From the IMG/VR virus record IMGVR_UViG_3300010391_001881: a stretch of 15,702 bases of DNA. One strand, given 5' to 3'. Numbering within the stretch: the first letter of the stretch is position 1; each line of letters opens with the position of its first letter. The position numbers and the translations under genes were made by a program. This DNA is from a virus. The notes under the pieces are model-generated. The model was not told the DNA's origin and made no database searches. It was given only the letters and a program-made list of their open reading frames with translations. Positions 3,369 through 3,481 of the stretch are shown here, piece by piece.

Positions 3369-3481
3369 AATCCGCTAACCCTTAGCTGGGATCGACCTCA
3401 TCAGGTTGTTCCATAGTCGGTTGGAGCCTTTCGGCCGGAACAACGTTCAGCTTGCCAAAGCTATCATACGCTCGCGGATTT
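3369..3481 (-). ncRNA. Structured RNA element of unknown class, placed 2 nt 5' of tRNA-Gly in the same transcript direction
   Basis: An 8-bp closing stem AAATCCGC...GCGGATTT; an internal 8-bp stem GTTGTTCC...GGAACAAC enclosing a GCC-GAAA-GGC GNRA hairpin; hairpins AGCTT-TGGC-AAGCT and GCTAA-GGG-TTAGC. No ORF and no tRNA fold found. Confidence 0.35.

Follow-up and report, generated by a model that had tools for sequence, protein, structure and literature searches.

The tRNA gene arrays of huge phages are large, and their non-tRNA content is mostly uncharted. A stretch of viral DNA of 15,702 nt (IMG/VR virus record IMGVR_UViG_3300010391_001881; "the window" in the following) contains a tRNA array in which an initial annotation had placed a highly structured, unclassified RNA element beside a tRNA-Gly gene. 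The question raised by this locus is whether the element is a real folded RNA and, if so, what kind of RNA it could be. The element was located at positions 3368-3481 (114 nt); its sequence is quoted from the minus strand, and it ends 1-2 nt before tRNA-Gly(UCC). On the evidence of a homologue in a second contig, L081, it is a genuine conserved structured RNA in which a closing stem (P1) bounds a multi-helix junction, because L081 keeps the fold through compensating base changes.

The element and its homologue

The 8-bp terminal stem and the perfect 8-bp inner stem enclosing a GAAA hairpin, both described in the initial annotation, are present (Table 1), and no open reading frame (ORF) of at least 40 aa overlaps the element on either strand. 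One of the two 5-bp hairpins that had also been described (hairpin A) was found, while the second (hairpin C) is a CCC/GGG hairpin of 3 bp or, alternatively, a 4-bp ACCU/AGGU hairpin. The folding energy of the element is unexceptional; compared with shuffles, its minimum free energy (MFE) has z scores of -1.5 (minus strand) and -2.55 (plus strand). The MFE structure lacks the 8-bp inner stem, whose probability in the thermodynamic ensemble is ~0.1-0.3; the pair probability in the ensemble is ~1.0 for P1 and 0.62-0.88 for hairpin A. Of 20,000 shuffles of the element, a mere 0.07% contained two compatible perfect 8-bp stems. Pairing of hairpin A is plausible in the model, and its invariance gives no covariation evidence.

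The homologue was reached through a neighbouring protein. ORF196 (window 2198-2788) has a 48%-identical homologue on the 8.5-kb Logan contig SRR18053869_25779 (L081), which is a tRNA/ORF array like the window. The two share a gene order consisting of the Macro position, Cpn10, a 137-aa ORF, tRNA(CUA), tRNA-Val(UAC), tRNA-Glu, and the element; the position of the Macro-domain ORF of the window is held in L081 by a 140-aa ORF for which no Pfam match was recorded. A covariance model built from the window copy alone with the four-way-junction structure of the initial annotation (R1) matched L081 at 8290-8397 with 74.5 bits (E 8.6e-20). A model built from both copies (R2) scored its two members at 138 and 125 bits. 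The similarity between the two loci begins and ends at P1, and the flanks are unrelated.

The initial annotation had held that its fold would be refuted if the paired regions were not conserved in homologous loci. The opposite was observed, in that L081 keeps them via compensatory changes. In the two-copy alignment, which was produced by the model fitted to the proposed structure, 96% of the cells of the proposed helices pair across both copies, and 12 of 27 pairs have changed on both sides and still pair, versus 0-3 when the partners are slid by 1-3 columns. RNAalifold on the same alignment returned P1, the upper six pairs of hairpin B and one more, the inner hairpin, and hairpin C; the ninth pair of hairpin B, added by this program, is G46.U69 in the window and U-A in L081. 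The loops are less constant. The GAAA loop of the inner hairpin is AAAG in L081 (GUU-AAAG-AAC), so that a GNRA loop is not kept, and 7 nt (UCCAACC) of the hairpin B loop are missing in L081 beside the kept GACUA.

The unpaired parts behave differently from the helices. The joining strands are identical at 30 of 32 positions (GAGCGUAU-N-AU, GAAC, CUG-R-UGAGGUCGAU, and UUA), versus only 17 of 44 paired positions outside hairpin A. Together with hairpin A, the joining strands form a nearly invariant part of ~45 nt, including one invariant block of 22 nt. The tRNAs with the same anticodon in the window and L081 are 60-74% identical, which is no better than non-cognate pairs. By this comparison, the core of the element is better conserved than the surrounding tRNAs. 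Since the tRNAs are only this similar and the neighbouring protein is 48% identical, the invariant blocks therefore indicate purifying selection rather than recent shared ancestry, and the helices appear to have had time to turn over.

The tRNA-sense strand is favoured as the functional strand because of the G.U pairs in the covarying helices (U8.G108 in L081 and G46.U69 in the window) and the gene orientation. A conserved ORF or peptide was not found in the element, because the only AUG of the window copy reads AUU in L081. In the window, 1-3 nt lie between the 3' end of P1 and position +1 of tRNA-Gly, with a U (3367) at -1. In L081, the discriminator base of tRNA-Glu(CUC) comes 3 nt before the start of P1, with no spacer there, and downstream of the element are a U-rich stretch and a small ORF whose AUG lies 27 nt past the element end. 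Thus, in each genome a tRNA end is found 1-3 nt away from P1, upstream of it in L081 and downstream of it in the window. The GNRA loop and the abutment to tRNA-Gly, which the initial annotation had presented as features of the element, hold for the window and not for L081, where tRNA-Glu lies 3 nt upstream.

Table 1. Parts of the element, their counterparts in L081, and the adjoining features of the window. Element positions are given as p, which is 3482 minus the window coordinate.
Feature	Element position	Window coordinates	Strand	Window sequence	L081 sequence	Remark
Whole element, 114 nt	p1-p114	3368-3481	-			Bounded by closing stem P1
P1, 5' strand	p1-8	3474-3481	-	AAAUCCGC		6 pairs (p3-8) shared with the homologue
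P1, 3' strand	p107-114	3368-3375	-	GCGGAUUU		Pairs with AAAUCCGC
P1, shared pairs				AUCCGC/GCGGAU	GCUAGU/GCUAGC	4 of 6 changed on both sides, 1 more to U.G
Joining strand J1	p9-19	3463-3473	-	GAGCGUAUGAU		10 of 11 bases same in the homologue
Hairpin A, 5 bp	p20-33	3449-3462	-	AGCUU-UGGC-AAGCU		Invariant in both copies
Joining strand J2	p34-37	3445-3448	-	GAAC		Invariant
Hairpin B	p38-77	3405-3444	-	GUUGUUCC/GGAACAAC	GCUGACUC/GAGUCAGC	9-bp stem, p38-46 with p69-77; 4-5 pairs changed on both sides
Hairpin B, perfect 8-bp stem		3444-3437 with 3412-3405	-	GUUGUUCC with GGAACAAC
Inner hairpin of B, 3 bp	p47-56	3426-3435	-	GCC-GAAA-GGC	GUU/AAC	Enclosed by the hairpin B stem; 2 of 3 pairs (window GCC/GGC) changed on both sides
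GACUA in hairpin B loop	p64-68	3414-3418	-	GACUA		Conserved
Joining strand J3	p78-91	3391-3404	-	CUGAUGAGGUCGAU		13 of 14 bases same; sole change A81 to G
CUGAUGAG string		3404-3397	-	CUGAUGAG	CUGGUGA
Hairpin C, 3 bp	p92-103	3379-3390	-	CCC-AGCUAA-GGG	UUC/GAA	Loop sequence varies; 2 of 3 pairs (window CCC/GGG) changed on both sides
Joining strand J4	p104-106	3376-3378	-	UUA		Invariant
Conserved blocks				GAGCGUAU / GGCAAGCUGAAC / UGAGGUCGAU
tRNA-Gly(UCC)		3296-3366	-			Directly downstream of the element; ARAGORN, Rfam RF00005 71.9 bits
AT-rich spacer, 191 nt		3482-3672	-			Separates tRNA-Glu(UUC) (3745-3673) from the element

Distribution and possible roles

The description of the element as unclassified was borne out, as neither copy matched any of the 4227 models of Rfam 15 at the gathering score or at E up to 10. 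A blastn search of 50,697 phage genomes gave no match to the element, even with E values as high as 10. Five element-derived patterns, patterns for tRNA-Gly and tRNA-Glu, and a protein-based scan gave no member in IMG/VR. In the JGI metagenomes, a 20-mer of tRNA-Gly had no match, and a 26-mer of tRNA-Glu led to 67 huge-phage tRNA-array loci, none of which contained the element by nhmmer or the covariance model. A scan of GTDB genomes gave 24 matches, which is about the estimated chance number, and none of them scored with R2. The element is single-copy in the window, and a fuzzy three-block regular expression found no further copy in ~0.8 Mb of related loci. An 18-mer match in L084 was dismissed as chance; it sits inside a 272-aa ORF. 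ORF164 and ORF70 of the window had no other homologues among 5.8 billion proteins and offered no useful synteny.

The closest relative of the window that was found is L009, a 1.6-kb JGI contig with a DNA identity of 80% through ORF164 and 95% through tRNA-Glu. Its homology to the window stops exactly at the 3' end of tRNA-Glu(UUC), and a different tRNA-Gly(UCC) follows beyond a spacer. This spacer (L009 911-1017, plus strand) is a structured segment of 107 nt with the outer stem GGGAGAC/GUCUCCC and an MFE z score of -2.6. It was considered as a divergent member of the family and rejected on comparison.

The four-way junction has a competitor. RNAalifold also gave a second fold, mutually exclusive with the first, in which a stem under hairpin A is formed by p10-14 with p36-40, CUGRUGAG is held in a small hairpin of p76-79 with p84-87, and hairpin B is reduced to p41-46 with p69-74. 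In this fold, 100% of the cells pair in both sequences. By nearest-neighbour evaluation, the compact five-helix fold lies ~4 kcal/mol below the open four-way junction in both copies, and the substitution pair U39C and A76G fits either fold. A pseudoknot between GACU (p64-67) and GGUC (p85-88) is possible from the sequence. The two mutually exclusive conserved folds could conceivably represent two states of a switch.

We favour, at about an even chance, the explanation that the element is a free-standing structured small-RNA gene of ~110 nt, belonging to an undescribed family and located in the tRNA operon of a huge-phage-like virus. The element would be co-transcribed with the tRNAs and released by the tRNA-processing machinery. 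In the window, its 3' end would come from the RNase P cut at position +1 of tRNA-Gly; in L081, its 5' end would come from the processing of tRNA-Glu at the 3' side. An autonomous RNA gene embedded in the array, like T4 rnaD, fits better than a leader of one tRNA because the tRNA cut that defines one end differs between the genomes. Precedents are T4 rnaD and the YrlA-like modules that lie between tRNAs in other huge phages. P1 may then shield the excised RNA from exonucleases, and the RNA would act in trans via its invariant core of ~45 nt. This core may be a sequence-specific tertiary core or a binding platform, most likely for a protein partner, with peripheral helices that need only pair. 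It is a long shot that a new, huge-phage-specific class of functional RNA has its active site or binding pocket in this core; such a class could include a self-cleaving or tRNA-precursor-processing ribozyme, a ligand or protein aptamer, or a decoy against host defences that target tRNAs.

Several points weigh against this explanation. The family has two members, so the covariation comes from one pairwise comparison, for which a statistical test of the R-scape type is impossible because there are only two sequences, and the invariant regions are uninformative on pairing. The four-way junction and the compact fold exclude each other, and both fit the two sequences. The closest relative, L009, lacks the element and has an unrelated 107-nt spacer in the same slot; judged from these sequences, the element is therefore dispensable or replaceable and not essential to this phage lineage. 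No candidate for a partner protein came out of the Pfam scans, which covered 20 neighbouring ORFs. Finally, the free-standing, trans-acting role is inferred solely by analogy. For now, the element is a well-supported candidate for a new family with two members and not a characterized system.

Among the other explanations, a cis-acting processing or spacer module is unlikely. It would organize the maturation of the adjacent tRNA, for instance by offering the tRNA end to RNase P or RNase Z, by stopping exonucleases, or by keeping the folds of neighbouring tRNAs apart, and it would have no role once excised. The short distance of 1-3 nt to a tRNA end, seen in either genome, agrees with such a module, as do the other closed structured spacers in inter-tRNA gaps (window 8314-8448 and L009 911-1017). 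However, a pure spacer needs structure and not ~45 invariant nt across phages with tRNAs of 60-74% identity, and the adjoining tRNA differs between the genomes and sits on the opposite side. The cloverleaf-like topology, a closing stem with three or four arms, brings to mind a functional tRNA-derived mimic, such as a decoy or partner of a tRNA-binding enzyme. The helices of the element follow one another like the acceptor, D, anticodon, and T arms; with its GG loop, hairpin A (UAGCUU-UGGC-AAGCU) is like a D arm; and p79-99 resemble the T arm of tRNA-Gly, with 19 of 22 bases matching when gaps are allowed. The global alignment to several window tRNAs is mildly raised (z 2.2-2.6), and mimics of the YrlA type occur in other huge-phage tRNA arrays (PMC4201824). 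Nevertheless, we regard this origin as distinctly unlikely. ARAGORN gave no match, with no call at 3368-3481 among its 19, and the Rfam models of tRNA (RF00005), tRNA-Sec, and YrlA gave none at E up to 10. The local tRNA similarity was equalled by 107 of 300 shuffles, the covariation of hairpin C contradicts a T-arm-like pairing, and the 7-nt T loop is absent. A tRNA pseudogene was rejected because the local alignment to the 19 window tRNAs is at the shuffle level, the global z score is only 2.2-2.6, and decay is incompatible with covariation.

The combination of invariant junction strands and freely covarying helices is typical of small ribozymes, and the strings CUGAUGAG and GAA or GAAA stand at a multi-helix junction as in a hammerhead, with GGUCG (p85-89) able to pair with CGGCC (p45-49) in the manner of stem II. 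A self-cleaving ribozyme could help to cut the tRNA precursor, be it a divergent hammerhead or a member of a new class, and phages do carry such ribozymes, L002 having a segment that resembles a type II hammerhead. Against this, the hammerhead order is impossible. CUGAUGA follows directly after hairpin B, no GAA follows stem II, and GAA occurs only upstream (p34-36 and p50-52), where it cannot be placed in the required circular order (stem I, CUGANGA, stem II, GAA, stem III, H17, and stem I again). The core C3-U4-G5-A6-N7-G8-A9 reads CUGAUGA in the window and CUGGUGA in L081, with a G at the invariant A6, and the CGGCC-GAAA segment is CUGUUAAAG in L081. All three hammerhead permutations, and an arrangement with GGUCG/CGGCC as stem II, were tried and are excluded by the topology, the A6G change, and the non-conserved GAAA segment. 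This agrees with the initial annotation, which had noted that CUGAUGAG and CGAAAGG are present in an order incompatible with a hammerhead; the second string is GUUAAAGAAC in L081. Neither copy matched the hammerhead covariance models or any other ribozyme family of Rfam 15 at E up to 10, and the placement relative to the tRNA varies between the genomes, so that no consistent cleavage product can be predicted. We consider a ribozyme improbable. A cis-regulatory leader, that is, a riboswitch or a protein-binding operator for a downstream small membrane-protein ORF, appears very improbable. The conservation pattern is aptamer-like, in L081 a small hydrophobic ORF has its AUG 27 nt beyond the element, and a 70-aa hydrophobic ORF (ORF70) follows tRNA-Gly in the window. 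However, a whole tRNA gene lies between the element and that ORF in the window, and neither copy has a recognizable expression platform, such as a terminator or a helix sequestering the ribosome binding site. The two downstream ORFs show no evident similarity, and ORF70 has no homologues. Finally, we give hardly any credence to an element acting as DNA, whether as a site of recombination or replication that folds when single-stranded or as a small mobile insert bounded by terminal inverted repeats. The 8-bp terminal inverted repeat is like transposon ends, and the distribution is patchy, the element being missing from the closest relative, L009. However, the terminal repeats keep only their pairing and not their sequence, the G.U pairs become A.C mismatches on the opposite strand, a single copy exists in the window with none elsewhere in ~0.8 Mb of related loci, and no recombinase is adjacent.

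An antisense scan of the conserved blocks gave no target common to both contigs. In the window, CUGAUGAG is exactly complementary over 8 nt to CUCAUCAG at 2130-2137 (plus strand), which corresponds to the 3' strand of the T stem and acceptor of tRNA-Ala(UGC) (2125-2197, minus strand); the best predicted duplex has -17.5 kcal/mol. This complementarity is probably due to chance.

A pattern scan gave a separate observation on the IMG/VR contig L002 (4383-4428, minus strand). The segment reads GGCGAAAC-GGGCCGAAAGGCCC-GUC-GUGUAG...CUGCAC-CUGAUGAG, and the loop of its stem I is complementary to what follows the core. By pattern, it looks like a type II hammerhead.

The tRNA array and its phage

The window is a metagenomic phage contig whose sequence is also present in the Logan contig SRR6159086_33784 (17.5 kb); one of its proteins is recorded from a 15,702-bp JGI contig. 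All 19 tRNA genes of the window lie on the minus strand (ARAGORN and Rfam), as do nearly all of the ORFs, and small ORFs are interspersed among the tRNA genes. The window probably derives from a huge phage, because the product of one gene, an 847-aa ORF (10792-13335, minus strand), is 45-48% identical to ORFs of the uncultured phages LR756500 and LR756501 (462 kb and 735 kb). Both genomes are of the "huge phage" kind (PMC7162821). The 847-aa protein has major-vault-protein shoulder, vault-repeat, and SPFH/Band-7 signatures; a protein resembling the major vault protein is unusual in a phage. By blastn, the LR756500 and LR756501 genomes do not contain the element, and no link between this ORF and the element was found. 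An amber-suppressor tRNA(CUA), labelled tRNA-Pyl by ARAGORN, is found both in the window (6206-6278, minus strand) and in L081 (6675-6749), and L081 also encodes an ORF with an RF-1 domain (702-1049). These genes suggest a possible recoding of TAG in this phage lineage.

Within the 191-nt spacer upstream of the element, a consensus TATAAT with a preceding TG was read from the sequence at 3517-3510, which is a possible internal promoter; a promoter scan did not find a two-hexamer site in this spacer. The longest non-coding stretch of the window (9398-9812, minus strand) lies upstream of the first tRNA gene (Trp). A strong terminator-like hairpin with U7 behind it lies there at ~9655-9615, along with other stable hairpins that have z scores of -3.1 and -4.0, and the stretch is probably a transcription-unit boundary ahead of the tRNA array.

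Other structured spacers were observed in these arrays. The gap between tRNA-Met and tRNA-Pro in the window is filled by a closed multi-hairpin spacer of 135 nt (8314-8448, minus strand), whose outer stem, UGAGUGC/GCACUCA, begins 2 nt after tRNA-Met and stops 6 nt before tRNA-Pro. It has an MFE z score of -3.8, none of 200 shuffles was equally stable, and an Rfam search at E up to 10 gave no match. As a candidate paralogue of the element it was rejected, since the two are alike by eye only, and MAFFT/RNAalifold, R1, and R2 show no relation. L081 has a 114-nt spacer between tRNA-Val and tRNA-His (8028-8141, plus strand) with three stable hairpins and -37.8 kcal/mol, which may be another array-embedded structured RNA. 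As the element shows, huge-phage tRNA arrays conceal conserved structured RNAs that are neither tRNAs nor members of a catalogued family.

Comparison with known RNAs

Two general motifs were considered for the element. A K-turn or box C/D arrangement of CUGA (p32-35) with UGAUGA (p79-84) appears unlikely, since its C stem would include a C.C mismatch and hairpin A could not form alongside it. The likeness of GAGCGUAU to GAGCCGUAU of domain 5 of group II introns was rejected, as it is not matched by the geometry of the helix, bulge, and loop. The element shares with tRNAs the cloverleaf-like topology, the location on the tRNA strand of the array, and the D-arm-like hairpin A, but it is 114 nt long, has joining strands of 11, 4, 14, and 3 nt, and lacks both a T loop and an anticodon loop.

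For a YrlA RNA, a Ro60 (TROVE) gene would be expected no further than ~4 kb away. The scan of 20 window ORFs gave no TROVE domain, the phage genome being incomplete. YrlA and other Y RNA-like RNAs have been found in some phages (PMC4201824). They contain a T arm, a closed acceptor-like hairpin, and a D arm inside a Ro-binding stem with GNCGAAN0-1G (PMC4201824). The element resembles YrlA (RF02553) in being modular, ~110 nt long, and closed by a terminal stem; however, it lacks the pair of T loop and D arm in the permuted order of YrlA. No RF02553 match was obtained at E up to 10, and the GNCGAA-like window string GCCGAAAG is GUUAAAGA in L081, so YrlA was rejected as an identity. Separately, weak YrlA-like matches below the threshold (32 bits versus a gathering score of 69) were observed in two IMG/VR phage contigs, L011 (314 kb; 3404-3471 and 3966-4032, plus strand) and L010 (106 kb; 3210-3277 and 2649-2715, minus strand). 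Their inter-tRNA modules are ordered as T arm, closed hairpin, and D arm, and L011 4647-4755 has two T-arm-like hairpins within a closing stem.

The closest counterparts in setting are the species 1 and 2 RNAs of phage T4 (rnaC and rnaD), to which the initial annotation had likened the element. They are small stable RNAs of 119-139 nt encoded in the phage tRNA cluster on the tRNA strand, and they are released during the processing of the tRNA precursor; to our knowledge, no function has been established for them after 50 years. Both copies of the element would likewise be non-tRNA genes in the size range of ~110-140 nt on the tRNA strand that abut a tRNA. T4 rnaD starts 1 nt after tRNA-Arg, and the element lies similarly within a few nt of a tRNA. 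The likeness holds for position and does not extend to homology. With filters off, R2 scored at best 7.6 bits on T4 68000-76000, with nothing on rnaC or rnaD. Moreover, close to its 3' end rnaC has a hairpin of canonical T-arm-like type, GGGUUCGAAUCCC, which the element lacks, the predicted folds differ, and the phage lineage of T4 differs from that of the element. By analogy, the element is comparable to T4 species 1 and 2 in its position and probable biogenesis, yet unrelated to them. Should the element turn out to be a stable RNA that has a partner or an activity, it would be a compact 110-nt object for biochemistry and would represent a new class among the very few RNAs of phage tRNA operons, beside T4 species 1 and 2 and the YrlA-like mimics.

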